DNA of 64,000 bases from Bacteroidia bacterium. Lineage in GTDB: Bacteria > Bacteroidota > Bacteroidia > 2-12-FULL-35-15. Location: assembly GCA_016786925.1 (NCBI GenBank), contig JAEUTU010000026.1, positions 18,044-82,043 of the forward strand. The letters run 5' to 3'. A model generated the notes under the pieces. The model saw nothing but the letters and a program-made list of their open reading frames with translations, did no database searches and had not been told where the DNA came from. Shown here one piece after another: positions 2,341 through 59,270 of this stretch (position 1 is the stretch's first letter; the number at the start of each line of letters is the position of its first letter). The translations under genes were made by a program, and so were the position numbers.

Positions 2341-2492
2341 TTTTTGAAATTATAAATTGTGATTAGATTAATACTTATTTATGCAATGCGAATGTAACAA
2401 AAATATTTCTTTTTAATAGTCTCCAAGCCCGATTTTACAATTCTTTATGTTCTGTTTGTTTAGATTCGTAAATTCGCAGCAAACAAAATCCT

Positions 2493-12764: not shown

Positions 12765-13379
12765 ATGATAACACTACTGATCATCGCGATTACCGTTTTT
12801 ATTTCGATCACCTCTATGGAGAATCATACATTGAAGAATAAACTCATGTTCAATGCTTATATGATCCATAATAGAAAAGAGTGGTGGCGTTTCTTTTCAA
12901 GTGGTTTGATCCATGCCGACTGGATGCACCTTGGTTTCAATATGTTCTCGTTTTATATGTTCGGTCGTCAGGTGGAAACAGCTTATGGATATATTTTTGG
13001 AACACAAGGTTTTCTCTTCTTTTTGCTTTTATATATTGGTGGATTGGTGATGTCTTCTTTGTATTCTTATGAAAAGAACAAGCAGAACATTTATTACAAT
13101 GCATTAGGAGCTTCGGGAGCGGTATCAGCTGTTGTATTTGCTTATATCATTATTGCTCCAACGGCAGGATTGTATTTCTTTTTCATTCCTGTTCCTATTC
13201 CGGCTTATTTATTCGGTTTGATCTTTTTAGGTGTTGAGTATTATTTAGGAAAAAGAGGAAATAGCAATATCGGTCATGATGCCCATTTTTGGGGAGCAGT
13301 GTACGGAGCCTTGCTCACGATCGTATTGAAACCCTCTTTATTTATGGATTTTATTGATCAGATCTTGGGGCGTGTTTAA
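12765..13379 (+). CDS. Rhomboid family intramembrane serine protease
   Basis: 6-TM protein. GASGAVSAVV catalytic Ser motif and a downstream His in a TM helix (HDAHFWGAVYG). Confidence 0.8.
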   Translation: MITLLIIAITVFISITSMENHTLKNKLMFNAYMIHNRKEWWRFFSSGLIHADWMHLGFNMFSFYMFGRQVETAYGYIFGTQGFLFFLLLYIGGLVMSSLYSYEKNKQNIYYNALGASGAVSAVVFAYIIIAPTAGLYFFFIPVPIPAYLFGLIFLGVEYYLGKRGNSNIGHDAHFWGAVYGALLTIVLKPSLFMDFIDQILGRV

Positions 13380-13385
13380 ACAAAA

Positions 13386-13880
13386 ATGGAAGCAATGAAC
13401 AAAGCAATATTTTTAGACAGAGACGGTGTTATTAATTTCGAACGTGGATACACGCATCGTTTGGAAGATTTCAAGATCCTGCCCGATCTGATGGACGTAT
13501 TGACCTTGTTTCAAAAGAATGGTTATCACCTGATCATTGTTTCGAATCAAAGTGGTATTGCTAAAGGTTTATACACACAAGCTGATGTAGAAGTATTACA
13601 TGCTTACTTGTTGGAAGAATTTAAGAAGAATAATATAAAGATATCTGAAGTGTATTACTGTGTGCATCACCCCGATGTGAGCAAATGTATCTGTCGTAAA
13701 CCGGATTCTCTGTTTGTTGAAAAAGGATTGGCACGATTTAATATCGATCCGAAGCGATCTTATTTTATTGGAGACAAAGAACGTGATACCGAAGCCGCTG
13801 AAAAAGCAGGTGTGAAAGGGATCTTGATAGAAGCGAATATTTCATTGAAAACGATTTTGAACCAAATTAAATTCGACTAA
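13386..13880 (+). CDS. gmhB: D,D-heptose 1,7-bisphosphate phosphatase / HAD-IIIA hydrolase
   Basis: IFLDRDGVIN HAD motif I. SNQSGIAKG motif II. GDKERD motif III. 164 aa. Confidence 0.8.
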   Translation: MEAMNKAIFLDRDGVINFERGYTHRLEDFKILPDLMDVLTLFQKNGYHLIIVSNQSGIAKGLYTQADVEVLHAYLLEEFKKNNIKISEVYYCVHHPDVSKCICRKPDSLFVEKGLARFNIDPKRSYFIGDKERDTEAAEKAGVKGILIEANISLKTILNQIKFD

Positions 13881-14729
13881 ATGCCGGGATTCATCAATCA
13901 TAATGGAAATTTTATGCCGGCCGATCAGCCGGTGTTGAACGTTAATAACCGCGGATTCCGTTATGGTGATGCCTTGTTTGAAACCATCCGTTATTCTTGC
14001 GGAAAGCCATTGTTCTTGAAAGAACATTTGCAACGTTTGCTGAATGGCATGCGAGTATTGAAAATGAAACAACATCCTTTGTTCTCTGTTACTTTTTTTG
14101 AGAATATAATTAAAGAGTTATCGGAGAAAAATAATATTGGATCGGATGGAAGAGTTAGATTAACCGTGTACAGAAATGATGGCGGTTTTTATGCACCATC
14201 TGATGATAATGTATCCTATCTGATGGAAATGTATCCTGTTCAGGAAAAGGGATATGTGTTGAATTCTACCGGATTAACGGTTGATCTATTCACCGAGTTC
14301 AGAAAAACACCCAATTCATTGGCTTCCATAAAATCGGCCAACAGTGCTATTTATGTGTTAGCAGGTGTTTATAAAAATCAGCAGCAATTGGATGAATGTA
14401 TCTTGAGTAATGATAAATCTCATATTATTGAAGCCATAAGTTCCAATATCTTTGCAGTGAAAAATGGAGTGTTGTACACACCTCCGGTGACCGATGGTTG
14501 TGTAGATGGTGTGATGCGCAAAAAGATCATTGAAGTAGCACAGCAGAACAGAGTAGCGGTGTATGAGATCTCGATCATGCAGAATGTGTTACTGGGTGCT
14601 GATGAGTTGTTTTTAACCAATACGATCAAAGGTATTCAGTGGGTGGCGGCATTCAAGCAAAAACGGTATACCAATAATACTTCTGAAAAGCTGATCGCTA
14701 AATTGAATGAATTGGTTGTTAGTTGCTAG
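13881..14729 (+). CDS. pabC: Aminodeoxychorismate lyase / class IV aminotransferase
   Basis: PLP fold-type IV signatures (RGFRYGDALFETIR; ...ELFLTNT.KGI). 282 aa. Start abuts the gmhB stop. Confidence 0.7.
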   Translation: MPGFINHNGNFMPADQPVLNVNNRGFRYGDALFETIRYSCGKPLFLKEHLQRLLNGMRVLKMKQHPLFSVTFFENIIKELSEKNNIGSDGRVRLTVYRNDGGFYAPSDDNVSYLMEMYPVQEKGYVLNSTGLTVDLFTEFRKTPNSLASIKSANSAIYVLAGVYKNQQQLDECILSNDKSHIIEAISSNIFAVKNGVLYTPPVTDGCVDGVMRKKIIEVAQQNRVAVYEISIMQNVLLGADELFLTNTIKGIQWVAAFKQKRYTNNTSEKLIAKLNELVVSC

Positions 14730-46852: not shown

Positions 46853-47395
46853 ATGCTGAGTTTAAATAAATACATTGTTTTACTGGTTGGTTCTTCCTTG
46901 CTGTTGGGTGCATCCTGCGGAAATGATAGCAGCAAAGCTACCCAGCAAACAAATATTCAAAGCAAAGAGTTTCAGGACAAACTCATTGAAGCCAATAAAA
47001 TGTATGTGAAGCGCGAAAGCGATGAGATCGATCAGTACGTGAAACACCGTGGCTGGAACATGATCACCACCGGAACCGGATTACGTTACATGATCGTGAC
47101 ACAAGGTAAAGGTGAGCTGGCAAAGCCCGAGCAATTGGCCAAAGTAAATTACAAAGTAAGTTTACTGGATGGCACTGTTTGTTATACCTCCGAAAAGAAC
47201 GGACCGAAAGAATTCATGGTAGGGAAGGACAATGTAGAAAGCGGCCTGCACGAAGGCATTCAATACATGCATGTAGGCGATAAAGCCATTTTGATATTGC
47301 CATCTCATTTGGCACATGGACTTTTAGGCGATGATAACAAGATCCCGGCTAAATCATCGGTGATGTATGAATTAGAATTATTGTCATTGCGATAA
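46853..47395 (+). CDS. FKBP-type peptidyl-prolyl isomerase lipoprotein (GldI-like size)
   Basis: Lipobox LLLGASCGN. FKBP core at the C-terminus (YELELLSL). Confidence 0.7.
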   Translation: MLSLNKYIVLLVGSSLLLGASCGNDSSKATQQTNIQSKEFQDKLIEANKMYVKRESDEIDQYVKHRGWNMITTGTGLRYMIVTQGKGELAKPEQLAKVNYKVSLLDGTVCYTSEKNGPKEFMVGKDNVESGLHEGIQYMHVGDKAILILPSHLAHGLLGDDNKIPAKSSVMYELELLSLR

Positions 47396-47396
47396 G

Positions 47397-48299
47397 ATGA
47401 AGCGTATTTCCCTTGTACTTTCTTTTTTACTCCTGCTGGGTTTCAGTTCCTGTTTCAGAGATTCCGACTTTGAAGGATATACCAAGACCGATACCGGCCT
47501 GCATTATAAATTATTGATGATAGGCGAGGGGAAACGTAAACCTACTTTTGGCGAGTTACTTCAACTGAATATCACTTACAAAACCATGTCCGATTCGGTG
47601 TTTCTGGATTCTTATTCCATCAATGAAACAGGCATGGTTATTTTGCCATTCAATCATTCTTCCTTCAAAGGCAGTTTTGAAGAAGGTTTGCTGAACATGT
47701 GCGAGGGCGACAGCGTTTCCTTTATTGTGGATGCCAAACCCTTGTTTAAGGAGTTTTTTAAAGCCGAATTGCCTTACTTTTTGAAGGAAGGCGACAAAGT
47801 AAAAATGGAAGTGAAGCTGAATCGTATCCTGGATCAAAAACAATATGAGCAGGAAATTGTTCGGTATAAAGAACTGTTGGAAGACCGTGATATTGAGGAA
47901 CAACGGATCCTGCAGGTGTATCTGGATACCATACAGGGAACATTTACCCCGCTGGAAAACGGCATGTATTATCAGCCGGTACAACAGGGTGCAGGCGATC
48001 TGGTAGAAAGTGGCGATCTGGTAAGGGTACATTTTAAGGGCAGTTTCCTGAACGGACGCACCTTTGAGTCCACTTATGAGCGTAACCAGCCCATGGAATT
48101 TACATTCGGGGAACAGGGGCAGGTGATCAAAGGATTGGAAGCTGCAATAAGTTTATTAAATGAGGGTGCACAAGCAAAATTTATCATACCTTCGCACCTT
48201 GCTTACGGAGAAAATGGATCATCCACGGGTGTCATTCCTCCTTATACAACTTTAGTGTACGAAATTGAATTACTTAAATTAACAAAACATAATAATTGA
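47397..48299 (+). CDS. FKBP-type PPIase lipoprotein, two FKBP-like domains
   Basis: Lipobox GFSSCF. The C-terminal domain carries the FKBP signature (IKGLEAAISLLNEGAQAKFIIPSHLAYG). Confidence 0.7.
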   Translation: MKRISLVLSFLLLLGFSSCFRDSDFEGYTKTDTGLHYKLLMIGEGKRKPTFGELLQLNITYKTMSDSVFLDSYSINETGMVILPFNHSSFKGSFEEGLLNMCEGDSVSFIVDAKPLFKEFFKAELPYFLKEGDKVKMEVKLNRILDQKQYEQEIVRYKELLEDRDIEEQRILQVYLDTIQGTFTPLENGMYYQPVQQGAGDLVESGDLVRVHFKGSFLNGRTFESTYERNQPMEFTFGEQGQVIKGLEAAISLLNEGAQAKFIIPSHLAYGENGSSTGVIPPYTTLVYEIELLKLTKHNN

Positions 48300-49255
48300 A
48301 AATGAAGATCTCTAAAAAACTAGTATTTGCATCAGTAGGTGCTGCTTTAATGTTTAGTGCATGCGACAATTCACCATACCCTGGTTACGAAATGTCAGAA
48401 TCAGGTTTGTATTCTCAGTTCTACAATCACGATGAAGCCGGAGTTACTCCAAAAGAAGGTGATGTAGTAAAATTGATCATGTCGTACCGTAACTCAAAAG
48501 ATTCGATCCTATTCGATTCTAAAAAAATGGGTCGTTCTGAAGATGGAACCATCGAGTTCCCTTTAACTAAATCTACATTTAAAGCAAGTTTTGAAGAGGC
48601 ATTAGGAACAATGGCAGTAGGTGATAGCGCTAGCTTCAAGATCAGCGCTGACTCTGTTTACTTAAAAACATTCATGGTGCAGGAATTACCTGCCTACATC
48701 GAAAAAGGAAGTATGTTGACTTTCGAAGCGAAGTTGGTAAAGATCACCAGCAAAGAAGAAGCAATGAAAGAACAACAAAAACGTCAGGAAGAACAAAAAG
48801 TGATGATGGAATTGGCGAAGAACGAAGAAGGAAAGATCCTGGCAAAATATTTAGAGGATAACAAGATCACTGCTAAGCCAACAGCTAGCGGATTGATCTA
48901 TGTGGAAACGAAGAAAGGAAGCGGTTCAAAACCAACAGCCGGATCAATGGTGAAAGTAAACTATGTAGGGATGTTATTGGATGGAACCATCTTCGATACA
49001 AGTTTAGAAGACAGAGCAAAAGAAGCAGGATTGTATGACGAAAGAAGACCATACGAACCATTTGAATTTGCTTTAGGTACAGGTCAGGTGATCCCGGGTT
49101 GGGACGAAGGTATTGCATTAATGACACCGGGTTCAAAAGGTAAATTGATCATTCCTTCTGAATTAGCGTATGGTGCTCAAGGTGGCGGACCGATCCCTCC
49201 ATTCTCTTCATTAGTGTTTGAAGTAGAATTGATCAGCTTTTCAGCTGCTAAATAA
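48296..49255 (+). CDS. FKBP-type PPIase lipoprotein
   Basis: Lipobox MFSACDN. C-terminal FKBP domain (VIPGWDEGIALMTPGSKGKLIIPSELAYG). Confidence 0.7.
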   Translation: MKMKISKKLVFASVGAALMFSACDNSPYPGYEMSESGLYSQFYNHDEAGVTPKEGDVVKLIMSYRNSKDSILFDSKKMGRSEDGTIEFPLTKSTFKASFEEALGTMAVGDSASFKISADSVYLKTFMVQELPAYIEKGSMLTFEAKLVKITSKEEAMKEQQKRQEEQKVMMELAKNEEGKILAKYLEDNKITAKPTASGLIYVETKKGSGSKPTAGSMVKVNYVGMLLDGTIFDTSLEDRAKEAGLYDERRPYEPFEFALGTGQVIPGWDEGIALMTPGSKGKLIIPSELAYGAQGGGPIPPFSSLVFEVELISFSAAK

Positions 49256-49329
49256 TTTGGATTAAAAATTGATAATATCGGGGGCTGACTAAAATAGTCA
49301 GCCCTTTTTAAAACCTTAAAGATCATATC

Positions 49330-50532
49330 ATGAAGAAAGTATCCATTCTTTTCCTTGCCTTATTCAGCATCACGGCTGTGGCTCAGGAGAAAGTAAAAAA
49401 AGACGAGAATACAGTAAAAACAGTTAAAGTAAAAAAGCCGAAGACAATGAAAACAGCATCAGGTTTGGAATATACCATCACCGAAAAAGGAAATGGTAAA
49501 CGTCCACAAATTGGAGATAAAGTAAAAGTACACTACACCGGAAAATTATTGAATGACACCGTATTCGATAGCTCTGTAAAAAGAGGACAACCATTTGAAT
49601 TCAAATTAGGTGCCGGACAAGTGATCAAAGGATGGGATGAAGCATTTCAATTGTTGGATGTAGGCGATAAAGCTACTATCAAATTACCAGCTGATATTGC
49701 TTATGGTAACAGAGCAATGGGTTCTATTCCTCCAAATTCTACTTTGATATTTGATGTGGAATTGATCGACTTTAAAGAAGGTGTTCGTCCTTGGGATGGA
49801 AAAGGGAAAGATACTATCACTACTGCAAGTGGTTTGAAATACATCATCATCAAAGAGAACAAAGCAGGTGAGCAAGTAAAAGCAGGCGCACAGGCAACAG
49901 TTCATTACAGCGGTTATTTCAAAGATGGAAAGATGTTCGATTCTTCTGTGGAGCGCGGACAACCATTCAAAGTAAAAGTGGGTAAAGGACAAGTGATCAA
50001 AGGATGGGACGAAGGATTGGCTTTATTGCGTAAAGGTGAAAAAGCAAAATTATTCATTCCTTATCAATTAGGATATGGCGAGCAAGGTTATGGACCAATA
50101 CCTGCAAAAGCAGAATTGATCTTTGATGTGGAGATAGTAGATGTGCAGGAAGCAATGGTGCCTGTATTGTACGATGTATCTAAATTAGAAGCAAAGAAAA
50201 CAGCGTCCGGCTTAACATACTATGAAGTAAAAAGAAGCGGAAGCACCGTGAAGGCCGAAGCAGGTAAAACAGTGAAAGTACATTACTCCGGTTATTTGGC
50301 CGATGGAAAAATGTTCGATTCTTCCATTGAAAGAGGAGAGCCGATTGAGTTTCCATTAGGACAAGGCATGGTGATCCCGGGATGGGAGGAAGGTATTGCC
50401 TTAATGAATGTAGGTGATAAATTACGTTTGGTGATCCCGTATTACTTAGCGTATGGCGAACAAGGAAGAGAACCGATCATTCCTGCAAAAGCCGACCTTA
50501 CATTTGATGTAGAGTTAGTGGATGTAAAATAA
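49330..50532 (+). CDS. Secreted protein with three tandem FKBP-type PPIase domains
   Basis: Three internally similar repeats, each with V(K/T)VHY(T/S)G.L.DG..FDSS..RG.P.EF.LG.G.VI.GW.E. Confidence 0.8.
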   Translation: MKKVSILFLALFSITAVAQEKVKKDENTVKTVKVKKPKTMKTASGLEYTITEKGNGKRPQIGDKVKVHYTGKLLNDTVFDSSVKRGQPFEFKLGAGQVIKGWDEAFQLLDVGDKATIKLPADIAYGNRAMGSIPPNSTLIFDVELIDFKEGVRPWDGKGKDTITTASGLKYIIIKENKAGEQVKAGAQATVHYSGYFKDGKMFDSSVERGQPFKVKVGKGQVIKGWDEGLALLRKGEKAKLFIPYQLGYGEQGYGPIPAKAELIFDVEIVDVQEAMVPVLYDVSKLEAKKTASGLTYYEVKRSGSTVKAEAGKTVKVHYSGYLADGKMFDSSIERGEPIEFPLGQGMVIPGWEEGIALMNVGDKLRLVIPYYLAYGEQGREPIIPAKADLTFDVELVDVK

Positions 50533-50545
50533 GATTGATTATTAC

Positions 50546-50585
50546 ATAAAAAAAGCCTGAGCATTTGCTCAGGCTTTTTTGTTTT
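50546..50585. terminator. Rho-independent terminator; copy 1 of a perfect 40-bp repeat
   Basis: ataaaaaaagcctgagcatttgctcaggcttttttgtttt, identical to 52509..52548. Confidence 0.7.
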
Positions 50586-50618
50586 ATTAGAAACGCTATA
50601 ATCAACAGTTTAATGAAC

Positions 50619-51611
50619 CTAATCTTGATTGTTAAACTCTTGTATTAATTCCTTTAAAGCCTCTACGTCTAAATATGAAATAGTATCAATTCTTCCTTCT
50701 GGAGTAAACGTGATTTTTTTTCCCGGTGTTAATATGATTTTTTCTTCTTTATTTATAGTTTCAACTTCTAATTCTCCCTCTATTAAGAAAATTTCAGTGT
50801 AATTTTTGTCTGTGATATTTATCTTAAGCGTGGTTCCTCTAACACAGGCACAAGCTGCAGGTGTTCTTATATCTAATTTACATTTTCGTTTAATTGCTTC
50901 AAATAGGACTTGATCGTTTTTAACGATTGCCCATAATGCCCCTTTTATAAGTTTACTATAATCTAATCCTTCATTATTGGGAGTAAATGTTGTGTTTTCA
51001 TTTAGCTTGATTTTGTTTCCATTGTCATTTGAAAGCATTATTTCGGTACCTTTTCCTGTGGATAAAGTATCCTTTTTATTTAATGTGATATTCTCTATTT
51101 CCGAACAGTTGTAATATGTCTTCCCTACCCCATCTTTATAAATTGTTAATCCATTGTTTTTTATCTTACAATTAATAATTCTGTAAGAATTTGCAATTAG
51201 TTCTTTTTTATTGTTTGTAGGCAATCCTTTTAACTGTTGTTTTGTGTTTTGATGGTTAATTGCATTGATTGAATCTTGTGCATTTTGTCGGATCTTTTTG
51301 CGTGATTTATCTATTGCAGCTTGTTTGGCTTCTTCTTTAGCAACCCATTGATCAATTTGGTCGTTCAATTGAAATAATAGACCAAAAACTAATTGCTGTT
51401 CTTGATTGTTGTTGATCAATGGTGTTGTTGCTGATTGTCCCTGTGATTTGTTGTTATAGGGACAGTCAAGTGCGTGTTGGCCATTCATCTGTTTACAAGA
51501 AACACATTGAGCTCCGCTAACCGGTGGAACAGATTGTGAAAACACGTTTGTCTGGTTTGTAAAAGACAAACAGATCAATAGAAATGTTCTTAAAATGATT
51601 TTTTTGTACAT
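50619..51611 (-). CDS. Secreted FecR-domain-like protein
   Basis: Signal peptide starting at MYKKIIL. The C-terminal CVRGTTLKI...IFLIEGELEV resembles the FecR beta-sandwich motif (VRGT.F). Gln/Asn-rich linker. Confidence 0.45.
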   Translation of the reverse strand: MYKKIILRTFLLICLSFTNQTNVFSQSVPPVSGAQCVSCKQMNGQHALDCPYNNKSQGQSATTPLINNNQEQQLVFGLLFQLNDQIDQWVAKEEAKQAAIDKSRKKIRQNAQDSINAINHQNTKQQLKGLPTNNKKELIANSYRIINCKIKNNGLTIYKDGVGKTYYNCSEIENITLNKKDTLSTGKGTEIMLSNDNGNKIKLNENTTFTPNNEGLDYSKLIKGALWAIVKNDQVLFEAIKRKCKLDIRTPAACACVRGTTLKINITDKNYTEIFLIEGELEVETINKEEKIILTPGKKITFTPEGRIDTISYLDVEALKELIQEFNNQD

Positions 51612-51619
51612 ATAATTTG

Positions 51620-52429
51620 CTAATTGAGATTTATCTTCCATTCATTGATTTTATCTTCCGATTCTGCTTTGTCCTCTGCATTTGGTTCAACCATTAAATA
51701 ACGTTTCATATTATAAATGGCCATTTGATAGTTTTCTGTTAGTGCATAAATCAAAGCCAAATTGTAATAAATTGGCGGATAGGATACTAGGTTGATATTG
51801 ATCGCTTCTTCATAAAGCGCTATTACTTTGTAATATTGTTTTTGGTCAAAAAATACATTTGCTTGTACCATTAATTCTCTTTGTTTTTCAATGTCACTAG
51901 CATTTTTAGTGGCTGTTTTTATTTTAAGACCAAAATCAAGAAGTAAACTGTCAAGCATTTTCGATTTGGCTGCTTTTTCTTTTTCTTTTAAAGAATTTTC
52001 TCTTAGAATAACAACATTGTCAGCAAATTTTTTGATGTTTTCGCCTTCTTGAAAAGTGGGTTCAGTGAAAAATAAATTTCCTAAAACTACACTTATGGGG
52101 TAGTTATCTACAAACTTGTCTAGCAGTGAGGTCTTATAAGTAATAGCTTTTGATTTTTCTCCTTCAGAAAGTATCTTAACTTTTCCGCCAATACTAACCT
52201 TATACTTAGTAGGTTTTGCAATGATGATCAACGTGTCTGCTTTTATTTCTACTTTTTCTATTTGAATTAAATAATTAAATGTAGTCGCATTAATTTTCTC
52301 ATCAACTCTTATCTTATTGCTTAATATTAATTCTGTTAATTCAGATTTGGCTCTTGTGTAGGTCCCGATTTGGCCAAAAAAATTGGAATGATATAGAAAA
52401 ATGAATACGATCAATAATATTCTATTCAT
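51620..52429 (-). CDS. Secreted hypothetical protein with C-terminal TPR-like helices
   Basis: Signal peptide. The C-terminal YYKVIALYEEA...YYNLALIYALTENYQMAIYNMKRYL resembles a TPR pair. Confidence 0.4.
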   Translation of the reverse strand: MNRILLIVFIFLYHSNFFGQIGTYTRAKSELTELILSNKIRVDEKINATTFNYLIQIEKVEIKADTLIIIAKPTKYKVSIGGKVKILSEGEKSKAITYKTSLLDKFVDNYPISVVLGNLFFTEPTFQEGENIKKFADNVVILRENSLKEKEKAAKSKMLDSLLLDFGLKIKTATKNASDIEKQRELMVQANVFFDQKQYYKVIALYEEAININLVSYPPIYYNLALIYALTENYQMAIYNMKRYLMVEPNAEDKAESEDKINEWKINLN

Positions 52430-52508
52430 GTTCAGGAATTTAGCGTTTATGTCTTTTAGTAATACAAATGTACACCAGGTCAGATTTGATAAAAATGAGG
52501 AAAGTCAT

Positions 52509-52548
52509 ATAAAAAAAGCCTGAGCATTTGCTCAGGCTTTTTTGTTTT
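52509..52548. terminator. Rho-independent terminator; copy 2 of the perfect 40-bp repeat
   Basis: Identical to 50546..50585. Contains the TGA stop of the DUF3820 gene. Confidence 0.7.
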
Positions 52549-52756
52549 TTAGAGGTTTTAAGAGATCTTCCAAGCCATTGAGTTTGATCACATACATGGT
52601 TTCCAGTAGCACACCCAATTTACCTTCCGGAAAACCTTTTCGATTGAACCATTCCAAATATGAAACAGGCAAATTACAAAGCACAGTGCCCTGATACCTC
52701 CCAAAAGGCATTTTCATTTCTACAAGAGAGAGTAGGAGTTCGGGGTTAAGGGTCAT
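52532..52756 (-). CDS. DUF3820-like small protein
   Basis: MPFGRYQGTVLCNLPVSYLEWFNRKGFPEGKLGVLLETMYVIKLNGLE matches my memory of the DUF3820 family consensus. Confidence 0.55.
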   Translation of the reverse strand: MTLNPELLLSLVEMKMPFGRYQGTVLCNLPVSYLEWFNRKGFPEGKLGVLLETMYVIKLNGLEDLLKPLKNKKA

Positions 52757-52763
52757 TCTGTTA

Positions 52764-53108
52764 TTATTTTATTTCTAATAGTCCATATTCTTCTAGCGCA
52801 TCGCTCCAGATGTTGTCTTTATTTAGTCGAATTAATTCTAATACAATTTTAGTGATTTTCTCTTGGTTTAAATTGTCTTCTCCAATTTCGTGAATGAATT
52901 TTTTTGATAATTGTTCGTCTAAGCATTTCGCATTGTTGGTAATATTGCAACACCCATAACCATCAAATGAAATTCTACATAAATAAATACGTCTATCTGC
53001 GGTACAATTGAAATCCATATATACCGAACTATCCAAACAGCCTAGATAGAAGTCAGCCTTTCTGCTTTCTGGCATCGTGGTTTTAAAGAAATCAAAGTTC
53101 GGTTTCAT
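52764..53108 (-). CDS. Hypothetical Cys-containing cytoplasmic protein
   Basis: 114 aa ORF with good coding periodicity in the island. No motif recognised. Confidence 0.35.
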   Translation of the reverse strand: MKPNFDFFKTTMPESRKADFYLGCLDSSVYMDFNCTADRRIYLCRISFDGYGCCNITNNAKCLDEQLSKKFIHEIGEDNLNQEKITKIVLELIRLNKDNIWSDALEEYGLLEIK

Positions 53109-53128
53109 GTATATTATGTTTTATAAAT

Positions 53129-54535
53129 CTATTGACCGTACTTAGTTTTTACGCTATTTGAAAATGACCCCGAGATATTATTGTTTTTGTAGTTTACTTG
53201 AACTTCATATGTTTTGTCTTTCTTAAAATCATCAGAATATATAATGAATGAATTTAGTCCTTTTTTTGCTTTTGTTTCTGAAGTAGCGACAATTCTTTCA
53301 TTGTCAGGGTCTTGGATATAAATTTCAACATCCGCTTTTTCTATAAAATAAACAATTACTTCAATCTCGTTTTTGCTTTTGCTGCTTATGTCTCTAATAT
53401 TATTTTTATTGGTTATGTATGTACGTTCTTGTTTTTTCCCTTTTTCAATTCCTTTTATTTTGCTGTAAGTTATTACTCCTTGCACATTTCCAAATTCCAT
53501 GAATGGCATTGGGAAGAAAGGTAAAATGTAATATCTGTAGGGATCGTTATTTGCTTGAACGATTTTCTGATAAGAATAACCATTGATAGTATCATATGTA
53601 ACTCCTTGCAAAAACAAGCTTTTTTCATTCTTAGTTTCAATGAGCTTTAATTCGGTTTTGTAGTCCTTAAAAGGTACAAATAGTTGATTGCCTACATAAT
53701 AACCGCTGTCAGTAATAGAAATTAGCAGTTCTTCTGGTTTTTCGTAAGAGCCGCTTAGATAGTTGTATCCTTCAACTTCTAATTTTAACGTGCTTTTTTC
53801 ATTGACAATTGTATCACTTACGTACTTAATATTTTTGAATTGTTTGTCCTCATATTCGGCCATATTGGTAGTGTCATTGTACCATTTTCTACGATAAAAT
53901 AGCTGAATTTCATCTCCTTTTTCTATGTCAAACTTTGTTGAAGCAGTGTAGCTATTTTGTAGCCCTTTTGTTATGTCGTTATAATTATTACCCATTAATT
54001 GTTTGGTGTAAAACTCTCCGTTGCTCGAAACTGCAATCGTTTGAATATCCGGAATAATTACAAGGTAGATTTCAGTATTTTCCTTGTGATAATATTTTCT
54101 TGGAGTTTTGTTAGATGGTATTAAACTATCTCTCGGGTAACTGCTTCGTGTATCAAGGAATTCGAGTGAAATTTGAGTTTCTTTCCCAAAGATCGTCCCA
54201 GTCTGTTCTTTATTATTTTTATAGTTTATTTTATGAATAATATTTTTATTCTTGTCAAGCAAGCAATATATATCTTTTGAAAAGGATTCGTAGAATGTTT
54301 TCGTCTCCTTTTTATCTGAATAGTCTTTGAAATCTTCTGTTTGAAATTTTCTGTATTTTATTTTGTCAATTATTGTGTCTTGCAAGTCAGTTCTTGTTTG
54401 CAAGCCAATAAATTCATTCTTATTGTCGAAATACGTGGTTCTGTAATAAAGCTTAGAATTGGCAAGTTCCTTTCTGGATTGTCCAAAAGAGAAAACGACA
54501 ACTAAAAGTAAAATTGTTGTGAATATATGTTTCAT
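53129..54535 (-). CDS. Secreted hypothetical protein
   Basis: 468 aa, signal peptide, Tyr/Asn/Lys-rich. Probably beta-rich. Confidence 0.4.
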   Translation of the reverse strand: MKHIFTTILLLVVVFSFGQSRKELANSKLYYRTTYFDNKNEFIGLQTRTDLQDTIIDKIKYRKFQTEDFKDYSDKKETKTFYESFSKDIYCLLDKNKNIIHKINYKNNKEQTGTIFGKETQISLEFLDTRSSYPRDSLIPSNKTPRKYYHKENTEIYLVIIPDIQTIAVSSNGEFYTKQLMGNNYNDITKGLQNSYTASTKFDIEKGDEIQLFYRRKWYNDTTNMAEYEDKQFKNIKYVSDTIVNEKSTLKLEVEGYNYLSGSYEKPEELLISITDSGYYVGNQLFVPFKDYKTELKLIETKNEKSLFLQGVTYDTINGYSYQKIVQANNDPYRYYILPFFPMPFMEFGNVQGVITYSKIKGIEKGKKQERTYITNKNNIRDISSKSKNEIEVIVYFIEKADVEIYIQDPDNERIVATSETKAKKGLNSFIIYSDDFKKDKTYEVQVNYKNNNISGSFSNSVKTKYGQ

Positions 54536-54591
54536 GCTTAATGTTTTCTGGAATTTTCGACACTTAATACTATCTCTTTCTTTAGTTACTC

Positions 54592-55524
54592 TTACTTCAA
54601 TCCTTTATTTAAGAATTCAATAAATTCCTGTGTATTGTTTGTATAACCTATTTCTGAAAGAACTTTTCCGCTTTCATTGATAATACAGAAATAGGGTTGA
54701 TAATTGGTTTTAAACTGCTCTGTTTGAAGTTTGATGAATTTTGCACCTACTGTTGATCCTGTAGCAATGTCTTCGGTTTTATCGTCAGTATAGGCAATGA
54801 AATAATTAAACTTCTCAGCTATTATGGATTTTACTTGATTGTCTATCAATACCCGGTCTTCTATTTTTCTGGCATTTACACATGCATAACCTGAAAAATA
54901 AAGGAGAACCTTTTTGCCATTTCCTTTTCCTGTTTTTATAGCACTTTCAAGGTCAGTGAGTTTAGTGAATTCTAATTTTTCGGGTAGAGTAGAGGCTGTG
55001 TTGTCTTTCGATAATGAGTAAAGAGCGAATGCCTGTTTGTATGTTATGTTTTGAAAATCATTTGATTGAATGAATTTTTTAAAAGGCTCTAATTCTGATG
55101 GAGGCAGACCTGCTTGAAGTAGCAGTTCTTTGTCCTTTTCAAATACTTCTATGCTTACAATTTTGTTCTCCAGCGTTTTAGAAGCAATGATTGCATTGCG
55201 CAATTTTGAATAATTCTCTGATTGTTTGAAGGAATTAAAGCTTTTTAGAATTGTATGGTAGGTTATTAGTTTCTCTTCAGTTGCATGCTGCATCAAAATA
55301 CTTGCAATCATTGGACCGGAAAGCAACTCACTATCAATAGAATCCAAATTGCCGCAACTTTTAAGAATATCGAAATCATTATTTATGGAGTCATTGGGTT
55401 CAGTAACAGCATGACTAACAAAATAAGGAATCTTATCCAGCACTTGTTTGCAGTCTTTTTGAGCCTGACTAAAGAGCGGTGCAGAGAATAATAGGATGAA
55501 TAATATGAGTTTTATCTTTTTCAA
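54592..55524 (-). CDS. Secreted protein with C-terminal thioredoxin-like fold domain (non-canonical active site)
   Basis: Signal peptide. The C-terminal KVLLYFSGYACVNARK...YFCIINESGKVL resembles a TlpA/DsbD-like thioredoxin fold with CVNA in place of CxxC. Confidence 0.4.
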   Translation of the reverse strand: MKKIKLILFILLFSAPLFSQAQKDCKQVLDKIPYFVSHAVTEPNDSINNDFDILKSCGNLDSIDSELLSGPMIASILMQHATEEKLITYHTILKSFNSFKQSENYSKLRNAIIASKTLENKIVSIEVFEKDKELLLQAGLPPSELEPFKKFIQSNDFQNITYKQAFALYSLSKDNTASTLPEKLEFTKLTDLESAIKTGKGNGKKVLLYFSGYACVNARKIEDRVLIDNQVKSIIAEKFNYFIAYTDDKTEDIATGSTVGAKFIKLQTEQFKTNYQPYFCIINESGKVLSEIGYTNNTQEFIEFLNKGLK

Positions 55525-55584
55525 TAATGTGTTGTTTGTTTTTGTTTAACGTTTTGCACCAGTACGCTGTTAGTGGCTGTTTTT

Positions 55585-56337
55585 TTATGCATTGAATTTT
55601 TCTCCAGTCGCAGTCTGAATTGTTGGAATTGCAAATATTAATAAACTTAATGCAATACAGTCTAGCTGTTCCCGTGTAATTAAAAGCATCCCCCCTTTGT
55701 CGAATGTGATTTCTTCATCAAATGTTTTTAAAACTAATCCTTCGCCTTCTCCAAGAGGTCCAGGTTTCATTACTTCATATCCTGCCGTTGATGCAAGTCC
55801 CATTCTTTTATAGCGTATAACTCGATCTGCTTTCGCAATGCCTTTGTGATGCTCCAGTCCATTTCTAATATCGAAATAGCTTTGGATCGACTCTTTGTAG
55901 ATTTGATGTTTGGGTTTATCTAACAGAAGTTTCAATTTGCTAGGAATGTTCAAAGAACGGTCTGTGGAGACATTCAACAGATGCTCTTCAAATTTATTTT
56001 GTAGAAGTGCATTAACTTCTTCCAAAGTCGTTTGAGGTGGAATCGTAATTTTTTCAGCCTTCAATCGCAAAATCGCAATTAGGTTGTCCATATAATCTTG
56101 AAAGGAGCCGATTATAGATTTAAAACATTTGTTAATTTCTCTTTGTTTCAAAAAGTCTACTGGAGGTACTCCAATTTCTGAGATAGTAAATCCTTGTTTT
56201 AGAATATATTTTCTGTTATTATAATTAGGCTGTGAGATTGCGTCATATGTGATTTGCAAAGCAGTCAAATCGCTTCCAATTTGTCCGCGTAGTTTGGACT
56301 CATATATGCTTAAGTCTATGTCGATTTTTGCTTCCAT
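55585..56337 (-). CDS. Uncharacterised cytoplasmic protein with HEPN-like RN-x3-H motif (gene 2 of pair)
   Basis: 250 aa with no signal peptide or TM segment. Contains FDIRNGLEHHKG. Separated by only 21 nt from the upstream gene. Confidence 0.4.
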   Translation of the reverse strand: MEAKIDIDLSIYESKLRGQIGSDLTALQITYDAISQPNYNNRKYILKQGFTISEIGVPPVDFLKQREINKCFKSIIGSFQDYMDNLIAILRLKAEKITIPPQTTLEEVNALLQNKFEEHLLNVSTDRSLNIPSKLKLLLDKPKHQIYKESIQSYFDIRNGLEHHKGIAKADRVIRYKRMGLASTAGYEVMKPGPLGEGEGLVLKTFDEEITFDKGGMLLITREQLDCIALSLLIFAIPTIQTATGEKFNA

Positions 56338-56358
56338 TCGAACGCCTGAAATATTGTT

Positions 56359-57060
56359 TTAAGTTGTACTGTTTATAGAATGGACAGAAGTTATAAAAGT
56401 GTATTTGTTTATTAATTCAGGAACTGCAATTATCGTTTCTATTTCATTTGTCTTCACCTTTTCAATTATTCTTGCGTGAATTTTTTCTACAAATGTTCCG
56501 AAACCAAATATGTTTACAAAAGTTGTGTCATCTGTTCTGTGAAAGTCTTTTCCTAAAATATCTCCATTCCATAAAGTTGTAGGCAGTTTAACAACTTCAT
56601 TTTCATTGTCTGGGTCGGGATACACAGTAAATTTACAACGTTGAAGGTCATTTAATCGTTCATTGTCTGGAATGTTTAATAAATTAAAGTCATGAGTGAA
56701 TGCGTTTCTTAATGCAATCAAGGCATTTAATTTTCTTATGTCATTCTCAATAAAATCAAATCCGAATGTTTCTATTGCGAATTTTATTTTATTGTATTTA
56801 GGTGATATTTCTTGGCCTGGATTTTTAAAACAACTACCAATTTGATCAAGTACCGTAAAATAACCGATGGCTCCCAACCAATGACCAGCAAATCCGCATT
56901 CAGCATCGGGATTGTATTTTCCTGTTAGTTTGTCTCGCTTAGTGAAAAGCCGGCTTTCTCTTAACCCAGCATTGATGGTAGAATATCGTTGAGAACCTTG
57001 ATAATCAAAAGTCTCGCAGGTAAGATATTGAAATATATAATTTGTTTCTTCTTCTGTCAT
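56359..57060 (-). CDS. Uncharacterised cytoplasmic protein with HEPN-like RN-x3-H motif (gene 1 of pair)
   Basis: 233 aa with no signal peptide. Contains ALIALRNAFTHDFNLL, resembling the Rx4-6H motif of HEPN/Abi nucleases. Confidence 0.4.
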   Translation of the reverse strand: MTEEETNYIFQYLTCETFDYQGSQRYSTINAGLRESRLFTKRDKLTGKYNPDAECGFAGHWLGAIGYFTVLDQIGSCFKNPGQEISPKYNKIKFAIETFGFDFIENDIRKLNALIALRNAFTHDFNLLNIPDNERLNDLQRCKFTVYPDPDNENEVVKLPTTLWNGDILGKDFHRTDDTTFVNIFGFGTFVEKIHARIIEKVKTNEIETIIAVPELINKYTFITSVHSINSTT

Positions 57061-57181
57061 AAAATTGCCACTAACTAATGTATAAGACTGATAAAATCAT
57101 CCTTATCCTGCTAATAGGTTTGCAAAAGATGTATTAATTCAAATATAGCAAAATCAAATAAATAAAAATTAGGAGAGATAC

Positions 57182-57228
57182 AAAAACAAAAAAGCCTTCC
57201 ATTTGGAAGGCTTTTGCGGTCCGGACGG
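57182..57228. repeat. 47-bp perfect direct repeat, copy A (terminator hairpin plus 12 nt identical to the tRNA-Asp 3' end)
   Basis: aaaaacaaaaaagccttccatttggaaggcttttgcggtccggacgg, identical to 59021..59067. Confidence 0.9.
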
Positions 57229-57380
57229 TTTTCTTTTGTATGGCATATATCCTTGCTTGAAAAATTTGTCATTACCTTAAAAAAAACAGGAAGATCTCCG
57301 GCTTTTTAATTTTTTATAAATGAAAATAATGTTTGTTATTGTAAACAAAATTATTATATTTGTATATTATAATAAACATT

Positions 57381-57704
57381 ATGGAACAAAGAAAAGCTAT
57401 ATTATTACCTTCCTTGAATAAAGTTCTTAAAGAATTGGGGGAGAATATTAAACTGGCCAGGCTGAGAAGAAAGCTCAGTGCAGCGCAGGTGGCTGAAAGA
57501 GCAAGGATAAGTAGAGCAACGCTTTGGCATGTAGAAAAAGGTTCTCCCAGTGTTGCAATGGGTATATACGCACAAGTATTGTTTGTACTGGGGTTAGATA
57601 AAGATCTGTTGAAAGTAGCTGCTGACGATACCCTGGGAAGAAAGTTGCAGGATGCTGAATTAATGATCAAAGAGCGGGCTCCTAAAAAGAAAAAAGATGA
57701 GTGA
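57381..57704 (+). CDS. hipB: HipB-like XRE-family HTH antitoxin
   Basis: HTH (LSAAQVAERARISRATLWHVEKG). 8-nt overlap with the downstream hipA. ATG at 57381 preferred over the TTG at 57360. Confidence 0.7.
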   Translation: MEQRKAILLPSLNKVLKELGENIKLARLRRKLSAAQVAERARISRATLWHVEKGSPSVAMGIYAQVLFVLGLDKDLLKVAADDTLGRKLQDAELMIKERAPKKKKDE

Positions 57705-58962
57705 AAAAAAAGAGATATTGGTTTATGCGCATTGGGAGGCATTTAAAACGCCTGTTTTAATGGGCTTGCTTTCTGCTATCCCGGCAAAAGGTAAAGAAGT
57801 GTTTTCTTTTGAATATTCAAAAGAGTGGTTACGATCAGATTTTACGTATATGATAGATCCTGATCTGCAACTGTACTCTGGGCGCTATTTCCCGACTGAG
57901 GAAAAATTAAACTTTGGTGCATTTTTAGACTCCTGTCCGGATAGATGGGGAAGAGTGTTAATGGATCGCAGGGAAGCTGCAATGGCGCGGAAAGAAGGAC
58001 GTAAAATGAAACACTTGCTGGAGTCGGATTATTTATTGGGCGTGTTTGATGGTCATAGAATGGGAGCACTCCGGTTCAAAACAAATGAAAATGGAGCATT
58101 CCTGAATGACGATAAAAGCATGGCGGCTCCTCCTTTCACTTCACTTAGGGAGTTAGAACAGGCGAGTCTCAAATTTGAAGAGGACGATGCCGGTGATGAG
58201 GACTATTTAAAATGGATCAATTTATTGATCGCTCCGGGCTCTTCACTGGGAGGAGCAAGGCCAAAAGCAAGTGTGATAGACCCGCATGGGAGTTTATGGA
58301 TCGCAAAATTTCCAAGTATAAAAGATGAAAAAAATATAGGAGCATGGGAAATGGTAGTAAATACAATGGCAAGAAAGGCCGGATTAAATGTTGCTCAAGG
58401 TGATGTTTATCAATTTAAAAGTAAATATCATACCTATCTTACTAAACGATTTGACAGAACAAATAAGGGAGAGCGAATTCATTTTGCATCGGCAATGACT
58501 TTGTTGGGATATGTGGACGGTGCAGGACATGACGAGGGAGTTAGTTATTTAGAATTGGTAGAATTTATTATGAAATATGGGGCACAGGTAGATGCCGATC
58601 TGGAAGAATTATGGCGCAGGATTGTATTTCATATTTGTGTAAAAAACACAGATGATCATTTACGAAATCATGGTTTTTTATTAACGGATAAAGGTTGGAG
58701 ATTGTCGCCCGCATACGATATTAATCCCAATGAATATGGAACTGGATTGAGTTTGAATATTTCTGAAAAGGATAATGCTCTTGACATTGAACTGGCTTTA
58801 AGTGTTGCCGCATTTTTTAGACTAGACGCAAAGAAGTCGAAGCAGATCGTTGATGAAATAAAAAGTGTTGTAAATAATTGGAGAGAATATGCTAAAACCT
58901 TTGGGATTGGAAAATCTGAACAGGATAGAATGAGTAATGCTTTTTCTTTGACTGATGATTAA
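57697..58962 (+). CDS. hipA: HipA-family serine/threonine kinase toxin
   Basis: 421 aa with N-terminal HipA_N-like and C-terminal HipA_C kinase core (motifs ...ICVKNTDDHLRNHGFLL...). Confidence 0.8.
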   Translation: MSEKKEILVYAHWEAFKTPVLMGLLSAIPAKGKEVFSFEYSKEWLRSDFTYMIDPDLQLYSGRYFPTEEKLNFGAFLDSCPDRWGRVLMDRREAAMARKEGRKMKHLLESDYLLGVFDGHRMGALRFKTNENGAFLNDDKSMAAPPFTSLRELEQASLKFEEDDAGDEDYLKWINLLIAPGSSLGGARPKASVIDPHGSLWIAKFPSIKDEKNIGAWEMVVNTMARKAGLNVAQGDVYQFKSKYHTYLTKRFDRTNKGERIHFASAMTLLGYVDGAGHDEGVSYLELVEFIMKYGAQVDADLEELWRRIVFHICVKNTDDHLRNHGFLLTDKGWRLSPAYDINPNEYGTGLSLNISEKDNALDIELALSVAAFFRLDAKKSKQIVDEIKSVVNNWREYAKTFGIGKSEQDRMSNAFSLTDD

Positions 58963-59020
58963 GAAAAAGGTATTTGCATTATTTTGAGAAGATAGGAGTG
59001 GAGAAAAAAATTACTTTCTT

Positions 59021-59067
59021 AAAAACAAAAAAGCCTTCCATTTGGAAGGCTTTTGCGGTCCGGACGG
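59021..59067. repeat. 47-bp perfect direct repeat, copy B (overlaps the tRNA-Asp 3' end)
   Basis: Identical to 57182..57228. Confidence 0.9.
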
Positions 59068-59129
59068 GACTCGAACCCGCGACCTCTGCCGTGACAGGGC
59101 AGCATTCTAACCAGCTGAACTACCGGACC
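59056..59129 (-). tRNA. tRNA-Asp (anticodon GTC)
   Basis: The reverse complement GGTCCGGTAGTTCAGCTGGTTAGAATGCTGCCCTGTCACGGCAGAGGTCGCGGGTTCGAGTCCCGTCCGGACCG folds as a cloverleaf. The anticodon loop CTGTCAC gives GTC. GTTCGAGTC T-loop. Followed by a terminator hairpin. Confidence 0.9.
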
Positions 59130-59270
59130 TAATTCTGTTAGAATTGGATTGCAAAAGTAGGGTTATTTTTGAATTCAGCAAAAAAATAATGAAAAAAATG
59201 TGTTATTTATTTGTTTTGCTTGAAAATCAGTCCTTTATTTTGCCTTATTTTTACAAAAAAATTAAATCTC

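Follow-up and report, generated by a model that had tools for sequence, protein, structure and literature searches.

The hipBA islet and its flanking repeats

A two-gene toxin-antitoxin (TA) module, hipBA, lies directly downstream of a tRNA-Asp(GTC) gene in the DNA studied here, a 64-kb stretch of a Bacteroidia bacterium contig (GCA_016786925.1, JAEUTU010000026.1, positions 18,044 to 82,043), hereafter the window. The module is bracketed by two copies of a 47-bp sequence. The original prediction, made from the sequence of the window, had described these copies as the attL/attR duplication left by site-specific integration at a tRNA 3′ end. Loci from other genomes that were compared with the window carry labels of the type L0xx. 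The features of the islet and its borders are as follows.

57124..57181, tRNA-distal flank, referred to as cons60: a block of about 45-60 nt with the core CAAATATAGnAAAATCAnnnAAATAnAAAA
57182..57228, left repeat copy, attL-like: hairpin (57190-57215) and a 13-nt orphan tRNA-Asp 3′ fragment (57216-57228)
57229..57325, islet-internal left junction DNA, common to L015 and giving no alignment with other hipBA islets
57326..57382, plus strand, hipBA promoter/operator region with inverted repeats ATAATGTTTGTTATTGTAAACAAA / TTTGTATATTATAATAAACATTAT
57381..57704, plus strand, hipB antitoxin gene: 107 aa from ATG, helix-turn-helix (HTH) protein (HTH_31, E 5.6e-10)
57697..58962, plus strand, hipA toxin kinase gene: 421 aa, HipA_C (E 3.2e-52, profile positions 1-213 of 213)
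58963..59020, islet-internal spacer of 58 nt between the hipA stop and the right copy, found in L015 and L034 as well
59021..59067, right repeat copy, attR-like: functional terminator hairpin (59029-59054) and the last 12-13 nt of the intact tRNA
59055-59129 (ARAGORN) or 59056-59129 (Rfam RF00005, 68.8 bits), minus strand, intact tRNA-Asp(GTC), the presumed integration target

Exact search located the 47-mer AAAAACAAAAAAGCCTTCCATTTGGAAGGCTTTTGCGGTCCGGACGG at two positions in the window, 57182-57228 and 59021-59067, and nowhere else. A search allowing up to 3 mismatches revealed no further copy in the window, and 100 shuffles gave 0. More copies of the tRNA tail or of the hairpin, which would mark a larger island, were likewise absent from the window, even at 2-3 mismatches. 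The right copy consists of 12 nt (Rfam) or 13 nt (ARAGORN) of the tRNA 3′ end and 34 nt of downstream DNA. Its hairpin is terminator-like: 11 bp of stem enclose a 4-nt loop, and the tRNA strand continues into the T-rich tail TTGTTTTT. The left hairpin is identical and is the only other strong terminator-like site nearby on that strand. The number and positions of the copies given in the original prediction were thus reproduced by exact search with its mismatch and shuffle controls, and the composition of the second copy (last 12 nt of the tRNA plus a terminator hairpin) by ARAGORN, Rfam and hairpin searches, which place the tRNA part at 12-13 nt.

The islet measures 1.84 kb, that is 1792 bp of unique DNA and one repeat copy. 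Open reading frame (ORF) and Pfam analysis revealed no genes other than hipB and hipA between the copies, as the original prediction had claimed. Their reading frames overlap by 8 nt, and an HTH antitoxin gene ahead of a HipA-family kinase gene in one operon is the gene arrangement of the type II TA system hipBA. The NCBIfam model couple_hipB matches HipB with E 3.9e-8, under its curated cut-off; 107-aa hipB genes were also called in L015 and L030. HipA has thousands of homologues in Bacteroidota, the nearest with 96% identity, and others are found on Hymenobacter and further plasmids. Since the NCBIfam HipA/HipB equivalog cut-offs are not reached, the module would represent a divergent Bacteroidota subfamily with a predicted TA function. 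Exact-sequence look-ups of HipA, of the 233-aa neighbour and of the S13 ORF of the window returned no identical record.

The palindromic block upstream of hipB is kept in all hipBA modules compared (an alignment of the window, L015, L030 and L016; also L019), and the operator-to-stop segment is the only part conserved among the islets of the window, L030 and L016. The left junction of the window resembles that of L015 (z = 36), as opposed to that of L016 (z = -0.5). Junction DNA common to the islets of the window and L030 was not found (z = 0.1 and 0.9), which does not prove independent insertions, since neutral DNA would be saturated at about 83% coding identity. The possibility that the 58-nt spacer at the right islet end is a diverged cons60 copy lengthening the repeat was ruled out (z = -1.7).

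Empty and occupied sites in related genomes

Related loci, all from uncultured Bacteroidota, were retrieved via core genes to the right of the tRNA (S13 D-Ala-D-Ala carboxypeptidase, Rce1-like and a 246-aa gene) and an FKBP gene on the left, and ten sequences of the site were aligned. The 246-aa protein encoded next to the tRNA in the window is 100% identical to a protein of a "Bacteroidia bacterium" metagenome-assembled genome. The comparison called for in the original prediction, a search of relatives for an empty tRNA-Asp site with a single repeat copy, yielded such sites in four contigs from three assemblies (L037, L032 and L034/L035). These contain an intact tRNA-Asp gene, one hairpin copy and then cons60, with no hipBA there. 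The alignment shows the classical relation: in an empty site, the DNA that lies left of the left copy in the window meets the DNA right of the right copy across a single copy. L037, located on the same contig as L001, is 92-95% identical to the window at the nucleotide level in most of the DNA they have in common, rising to 98.9% near the tRNA. The 47-mer does not behave as a generic repeat, as the window has it twice and each empty site once.

The cons60 block abuts the terminator in every related genome: the single hairpin in L037, L032 and L035, and the left copy in the window, L015 and L030. Comparison of the block in the window with the L034 copy gave z = 6.0. It is probably a promoter region for the minus-strand genes on its left. 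On its minus strand cons60 contains a TAnnTTTG-like motif, which may be a promoter driving variable cargo. The DNA to the left of cons60 differs from genome to genome: a 233-aa ORF and others in the window, a 202-aa ORF in L015, GmrSD and PLD genes in L030, ORFs of 151 and 190 aa in L032, a two-component system in L034 and a 389-aa ORF in L037.

By flank identity the genomes form two lineages, A (the window, L015, L034/L035 and L037) and B (L030, L032, L033 and L036), and both contain occupied as well as empty sites. The polymorphism is compatible with excision, of which it is no proof. L015, whose HipA is 96% identical, has both junctions as in the window. In L030/L031 (HipA 85% identical) cons60 and the resident hairpin on the left are followed by hipBA, and then by a different hairpin, a spacer and the tRNA. 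Since this tRNA-proximal hairpin differs from the resident one, the tRNA-proximal terminator arrives with the inserted DNA. The occupied-site junctions are reproduced in independent assemblies (L015, L034 and L030/L031).

The left copy of L015 has drifted: it carries GCGGTCTGGACG and one stem mismatch, as expected for a non-functional orphan copy. The loop of the tRNA-Asp terminator (57201-57204 and 59040-59043 in the window) varies among strains, with ATTT, AAAT and ATTC found among the window, L015, L032, L034, L035 and L002. AAAT is the reverse complement of ATTT, as though the loop had been flipped, and the two copies in a genome usually have the same allele.

On the other side of the same tRNA-Asp gene, the closest relative (L037, 14116-21215, and L001, 13072-18784) carries an insertion of about 12.8 kb between the tRNA-Asp promoter and the 246-aa gene, at a point equivalent to about 59200-59205 of the window. 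It is bounded by terminal inverted repeats CCTAAAATCCGCARGTCTC and, apparently, by a 6-bp target duplication (GTGTTA); it encodes a DDE_Tnp_1 transposase, and its cargo comprises GIY-YIG, HNH, AbiV, MazF-like and DUF4238 genes. This is a defence-carrying transposon 5′ of the tRNA.

Tandem units, a tRNA-Ser parallel and other contexts of hipBA

In L034 the same hipA 3′ end and 58-nt spacer are followed by a repeat copy that includes 22 nt of the tRNA tail, an islet of 4.2 kb, cons60, a further repeat copy and the intact tRNA-Asp gene. The 4.2-kb islet encodes a 168-aa ORF, SLAC1, a histidine kinase (HisKA) and a response regulator; no integrase was found in it. This is tandem accretion, with the newer unit beside the tRNA. 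The arrangement agrees with the accretion model (PMC5704250) and with the island-growth model (bioRxiv 10.1101/2020.12.28.424599).

A parallel case was found at another tRNA. In L016 (GCA_018267825.1), tRNA-Ser(GCT) is immediately followed on its downstream side by a hipBA module (HipA 87% identical) in a neighbourhood of housekeeping genes. The copies of the 59-nt repeat on either side of this module are 86% identical, and each is composed of a terminator hairpin, 10 nt of spacer and the last 12 nt of tRNA-Ser. An extra exact 17-nt copy of the tRNA-Ser(GCT) 3′ end (11322-11338 of L016) is found between hipA and the terminator, at a distance of 168 bp from the end of the true tRNA gene. The 168-bp stretch can be seen as a near-empty second unit and suggests almost complete decay of an integrated element; units of this kind can thus decay to near nothing.

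The hipBA homologues of L017, L018, L019 and L020 are not beside tRNAs, so that tRNA ends are a recurrent, not the sole, location of the module. In L020 a hipBA homologue (HipA 79% identical) lies within an array formed by five direct repeats, each about 85 nt long (at 1996, 3581, 5068, 7850 and 12698). Every repeat has a hairpin ahead of it and encodes a conserved peptide of 28 aa that resembles a protein C-terminus (VDFTDKISNQLLKDIE..LKRYISSH*). The array matches no Rfam family, tRNAs are absent within 13 kb, and the whole resembles accretion in which the 3′ end of a protein-coding gene serves as target.

Mobility genes and integrases at the tRNA-Asp end

No integrase, transposase or resolvase domain was detected in any Pfam-scanned ORF of the window (most, not all, of the ORFs of at least 110 aa), among which housekeeping genes were recognised, and the tyrosine-recombinase motif pair was found in none of its 107 stop-to-stop frames of at least 90 aa. 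The lack of an integrase noted in the original prediction thus holds for every ORF scanned across the 64 kb by Pfam and motif screen. A tRNA-targeted island is expected to encode its own integrase; here, hipB and hipA are the only genes between the repeats. Terminal inverted repeats were not found at the islet ends (z = 0.0).

Two other types of element were considered and rejected. A DDE or other transposon, which would leave a short target duplication of fixed length, does not agree with the absence of a transposase from the scanned ORFs, with the lack of terminal inverted repeats or with a duplication of 47 bp. Integron cassettes are associated with IntI and attI beside the array and have imperfect attC hairpins that differ between cassettes; here the scanned ORFs include no integrase, and the hairpins are perfect terminator stems with T-tracts, identical in both copies.

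Searches of larger collections for similar islets gave little. HipA relatives with 52-57% identity are present at 48 loci of IMG/VR; in the 19 screened, neither a tRNA nor an integrase-like ORF was found within 10 kb. Metagenome contigs scanned for the pattern of a 35-nt hairpin and the tRNA tail gave no match, and a scan of metagenome contigs by HipA gave just two distant loci, without tRNAs. A scan of viral contigs with a tRNA-Asp body of the window type gave mostly phage tRNA arrays.

A scan of IMG/VR for the tRNA-Asp tail revealed integrated Bacteroidota elements, L044 and L050, which encode a 416-aa protein combining Arm-DNA-bind_5, Phage_int_SAM_5 and Phage_integrase domains. About 230 nt, which include a terminator hairpin, separate its gene from this tail. 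In L044 a second integrase-bearing element is present in tandem beyond a 19-bp partial tRNA repeat AAGCGGTCCGGACGGGACT, with a different hairpin before each copy. The features of this locus are:

2449-3684, 3919-3937, 13014-14261 and 14488-14506 of L044, two tandem integrase-bearing elements at tRNA-Asp(GTC)

Within 5 kb of L050 (2711-7669), three ORFs of 409, 413 and 416 aa, all on one strand, resemble tyrosine recombinases; two of them are adjacent and the third is 1.2 kb off, beside the tRNA.

The layout of L044 and L050, with integrase or cargo, hairpin and tRNA tail in this order, matches the right end of the hipBA islet. The tRNA portions duplicated in the window, L016 and L034 (12, 13, 17 and 22 nt from the 3′ end) end in the T-stem or T-loop, which Williams, in 2002, reportedly described as the usual crossover zone of tRNA-targeting integrases.

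These elements also bear on the observation, made in the original prediction, that the repeat extends mostly into the terminator and is unusual in doing so. The extent is as described; the oddness is reduced, as elements at this site normally bring their own terminator (L030, L044 and L050). The window is peculiar in that the supplied terminator and the resident one are identical. Identity at 47 of 47 positions is not improbable, as judged from a rough estimate based on about 3% divergence per lineage and on constraint on the tRNA and terminator parts. It implies that the incoming copy matched the resident terminator, with either a same-population donor or later gene conversion as the source of the match.

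A second terminator repeat in the window

The window contains another perfect terminator repeat, of 40 nt, which likewise brackets two genes:

50546..50585, hairpin B, first copy, 40 nt, ATAAAAAAAGCCTGAGCATTTGCTCAGGCTTTTTTGTTTT, just after the FKBP gene
52509..52548, hairpin B, second copy, closing a 1.9-kb cassette and giving the stop codon of a QSregVF_b gene (52532-52756)

The cassette encodes a FecR-like protein (50619-51641) and a TPR protein (51620-52429), both on the minus strand, and no tRNA is involved. In L037 a single hairpin B is found in the same place with a different gene (PD40/Tricorn_N) in the slot; this is not a clean empty site. The hipBA islet and the hairpin-B cassette have no ends in common. 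Hairpin B may belong to the same plasticity zone as the hipBA islet.

The GC content is 31-35% across about 50.6-57 kb, compared to about 40% elsewhere in the window. This low-GC stretch (50600-57180) contains minus-strand genes of 114, 468, 310, 250 and 233 aa, and its content differs in each related genome. The genes between 52.7 and 57.1 kb obtained no assignment from Pfam, PADLOC or NCBIfam, defence systems included. Further to the left, four consecutive genes at 46853-50532 encode FKBP-type peptidyl-prolyl isomerases (180, 300, 319 and 400 aa), the last with three FKBP domains; the internal direct-repeat families of this region are due to the FKBP gene run.

Origin of the islet

We interpret hipBA as an integrase-made islet flanked by attL/attR copies and lacking an integrase, located in a tRNA-Asp integration hotspot and either decayed or moved in trans; the probability of this reading is, in our estimate, about 0.6. 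The attL/attR architecture proposed in the original prediction is supported by the comparison with empty sites. Two origins had been offered there, a decayed or minimal integrative islet and capture of the TA pair by recombination between terminator copies. The former is now better supported, by the boundary in the T-stem or T-loop, the tRNA-Ser parallel and the integrases at the same tRNA-Asp end, and the latter is not fully separable from it.

The insertion could have proceeded as follows. The chromosomal site, consisting of the tRNA tail and its terminator, would recombine with a matching sequence on incoming DNA, giving rise to attL-like and attR-like copies. The copy brought by the element would then complete the tRNA and provide its terminator, and the displaced resident copy, an orphan 13-nt tail with its hairpin, would end up on the far side. 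Recombination was most likely carried out by a Bacteroidota-type tyrosine integrase that is absent from the islet, having been lost by decay or having acted in trans. A larger element may have shrunk to the present islet, the TA pair being the cargo likeliest to survive decay, and we infer that hipBA persists, and may stabilise the islet, since a TA pair resists deletion.

Several observations weigh against this interpretation. The islet, the scanned ORFs of the 64 kb and the second L034 islet all gave no integrase, so there is no recombinase to which the insertion can be assigned. Conservation among the islets of the window, L030 and L016 is confined to the operator-to-stop segment, which leaves no element-specific arm sites visible. 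The left copy of L030 keeps just GCGG of the tRNA tail. The copies within a genome have the same strain-specific hairpin alleles (ATTT/ATTT in the window, AAAT/AAAT in L034), and a near-identical donor or duplication in situ is therefore needed. The perfect 40-bp repeat of hairpin B brackets a cassette with no tRNA. Finally, divergence of hipBA follows divergence of the flanks (93% vs 95% for L015/L034; 83% vs 85% for L030), so that an old insertion followed by repeat-mediated losses could also account for the pattern.

Host recombination could explain part of these data with no site-specific recombinase. The islet would have entered on circular DNA by a Campbell-type single crossover over about 47 bp of homology, or by homology-facilitated illegitimate recombination once DNA of a relative had been taken up, and would spread and be lost by RecA-dependent exchange between strains and between repeats. 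The alleles shared within a genome agree with such exchange, as does the tRNA-proximal end of the L034 islet (cons60, hairpin and tail), which looks exactly like the native tRNA-downstream region of a relative. So do the varying extent of the duplicated tRNA (4, 12, 13, 17 and 22 nt), the repeat pair at a non-tRNA terminator whose slot holds different genes in L037, and the scanned ORFs nearby with no integrase among them. However, the origin of the first duplication is left unexplained, as are the repeated T-stem or T-loop junctions in two different tRNAs, a signature of the integrases that use this site, and 40-50 bp of homology is short for efficient RecA-dependent integration. We consider this route possible though unlikely. 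Less probable still would be a history in which hipBA is old at this locus, vertically inherited and not currently mobile, with the empty sites being deletions by repeat recombination and the repeat of the window perfected by gene conversion. Its identity does track that of the flanks (L015 93.1% vs 94.7% for the L034 flank; L030 83.2% vs 84.9% for its flank), and the repeat copies of L015 have drifted. Such a history still needs an original att-type insertion and is a variant history, not a different mechanism; occupied and empty states coexist in both lineages, and a perfect left copy in the window next to a left copy reduced to GCGG in L030 points to different ages or events, or to conversion. 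It is quite improbable.

The insertion could also have been directed by the terminators themselves, if staggered breaks or template switching at intrinsic hairpins duplicated the whole hairpin (40-59 bp) and the tRNA tail was copied because it abuts it. Two perfect hairpin repeats (47 and 40 nt), no more than 8.5 kb apart, each surround a pair of genes in a cassette of 1.8-1.9 kb, with varying repeat length, no terminal inverted repeats and no ends common to both cassettes. The 1.53 Mb compared contains only six repeat pairs similar in size, identity and spacing, three of them in this locus family, and all three have strong hairpins. Pure target duplication cannot produce the different hairpins borne by the copies in L030 and in L044 (whose terminator is common to L050), though, and the L034 repeat runs 22 nt into the tRNA, well past the hairpin. 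For the hairpin-B cassette L037 offers a replacement, not a clean empty site, and we know of no enzyme or precedent for target duplications of 40-59 bp. This makes a terminator-directed origin improbable. An artefact of assembly, also named in the original prediction, would mean that strains mixed in a metagenome had been joined into one chimeric contig through a short repeat. The source is apparently a metagenome-assembled genome, the related contigs L015 and L002 end inside the repeat, and L034 shows that another islet can separate hipBA from the tRNA. Against this, the left junction, hipBA and right copy also occur together in L015, hipA with the copy in L034, and hipBA beside tRNA-Asp in L030/L031, in four independent assemblies. 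An assembly artefact is scarcely credible.

Comparison with known systems

The preferred reading, an integrase-made islet now devoid of its integrase, has close counterparts. Like TA pairs that serve as addiction or stabilisation cargo of mobile elements, the module consists of an HTH gene overlapping a HipA_C kinase gene behind a palindromic operator, and its homologues occur on plasmids as well as in numerous other genomic settings; it differs from standard HipA/HipB in staying below the NCBIfam equivalog cut-offs.

From the work of Shoemaker and Salyers, the tyrosine integrases of Bacteroides NBU1/NBU2 and of CTn type are said to target tRNA 3′ ends with a common core of 13-14 bp. The duplicated part of the tRNA in the window (12-13 nt) fits this core size, and the L044 and L050 integrases have the Bacteroidota architecture, with a 19-bp repeat. 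The NBU1/NBU2 elements differ in encoding an integrase and mobilisation genes, and their att identity ends near the tRNA end, whereas here it continues for 34 bp more through the terminator.

The downstream side of tRNA-Asp might also be a platform that collects integrase-less cassettes (hipBA, two-component/SLAC1 and possibly FecR/TPR) bounded by terminator hairpins, whether or not the tRNA tail is included, and moved in trans by a recombinase encoded elsewhere or by a terminator-directed process, with the hairpins as recombination sites, as a functional analogue of an integron array with no linked integrase. We put this forward as a speculative and rather doubtful proposal. If it were true, the hipBA-only islets behind two tRNAs would be a mobile unit, not debris, and a common trans-acting or terminator-directed mechanism would explain the spread of small "orphan" gene pairs that have no mobility genes.

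In the tycheposon model (Hackl et al., bioRxiv 10.1101/2020.12.28.424599) variability peaks beside tRNAs, units are set apart by partial tRNA copies, each incoming unit moves the older ones farther from the tRNA, as in L034, and integrase-free cargo piles up; all of this is seen at the present locus. The hipBA islet is unlike a tycheposon in having no tycheposon-type recombinase or replication module, in its phylum and in a repeat that includes the whole terminator.

A cis-mobilizable element (CIME) is defined by retention of attL and attR with the integration and transfer genes gone (PMC5704250). The hipBA islet has att-type repeats including a tRNA 3′ end, has no integrase or transfer genes and stands in tandem with a second element in L034. 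CIMEs derive by deletion from integrative and conjugative or integrative and mobilizable elements. The islet may have such a descent, for which the near-empty unit of L016 gives indirect support, although it contains no remnant of integrase or transfer genes. It differs in that its tandem partner in L034 also lacks an integrase, its cargo is a TA pair only and its host is an uncultured member of Bacteroidota, not a Firmicute. In its att sites and gene content the islet can be called CIME-like. The clean natural series of empty, occupied and tandem sites in uncultured Bacteroidota illustrates how tRNA hotspots gather integrase-free cargo such as TA and defence genes, and also how incoming DNA provides the tRNA tail and the terminator. 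On present evidence the hipBA islet agrees with what is already known of decayed or cis-mobilizable elements beside tRNA genes.

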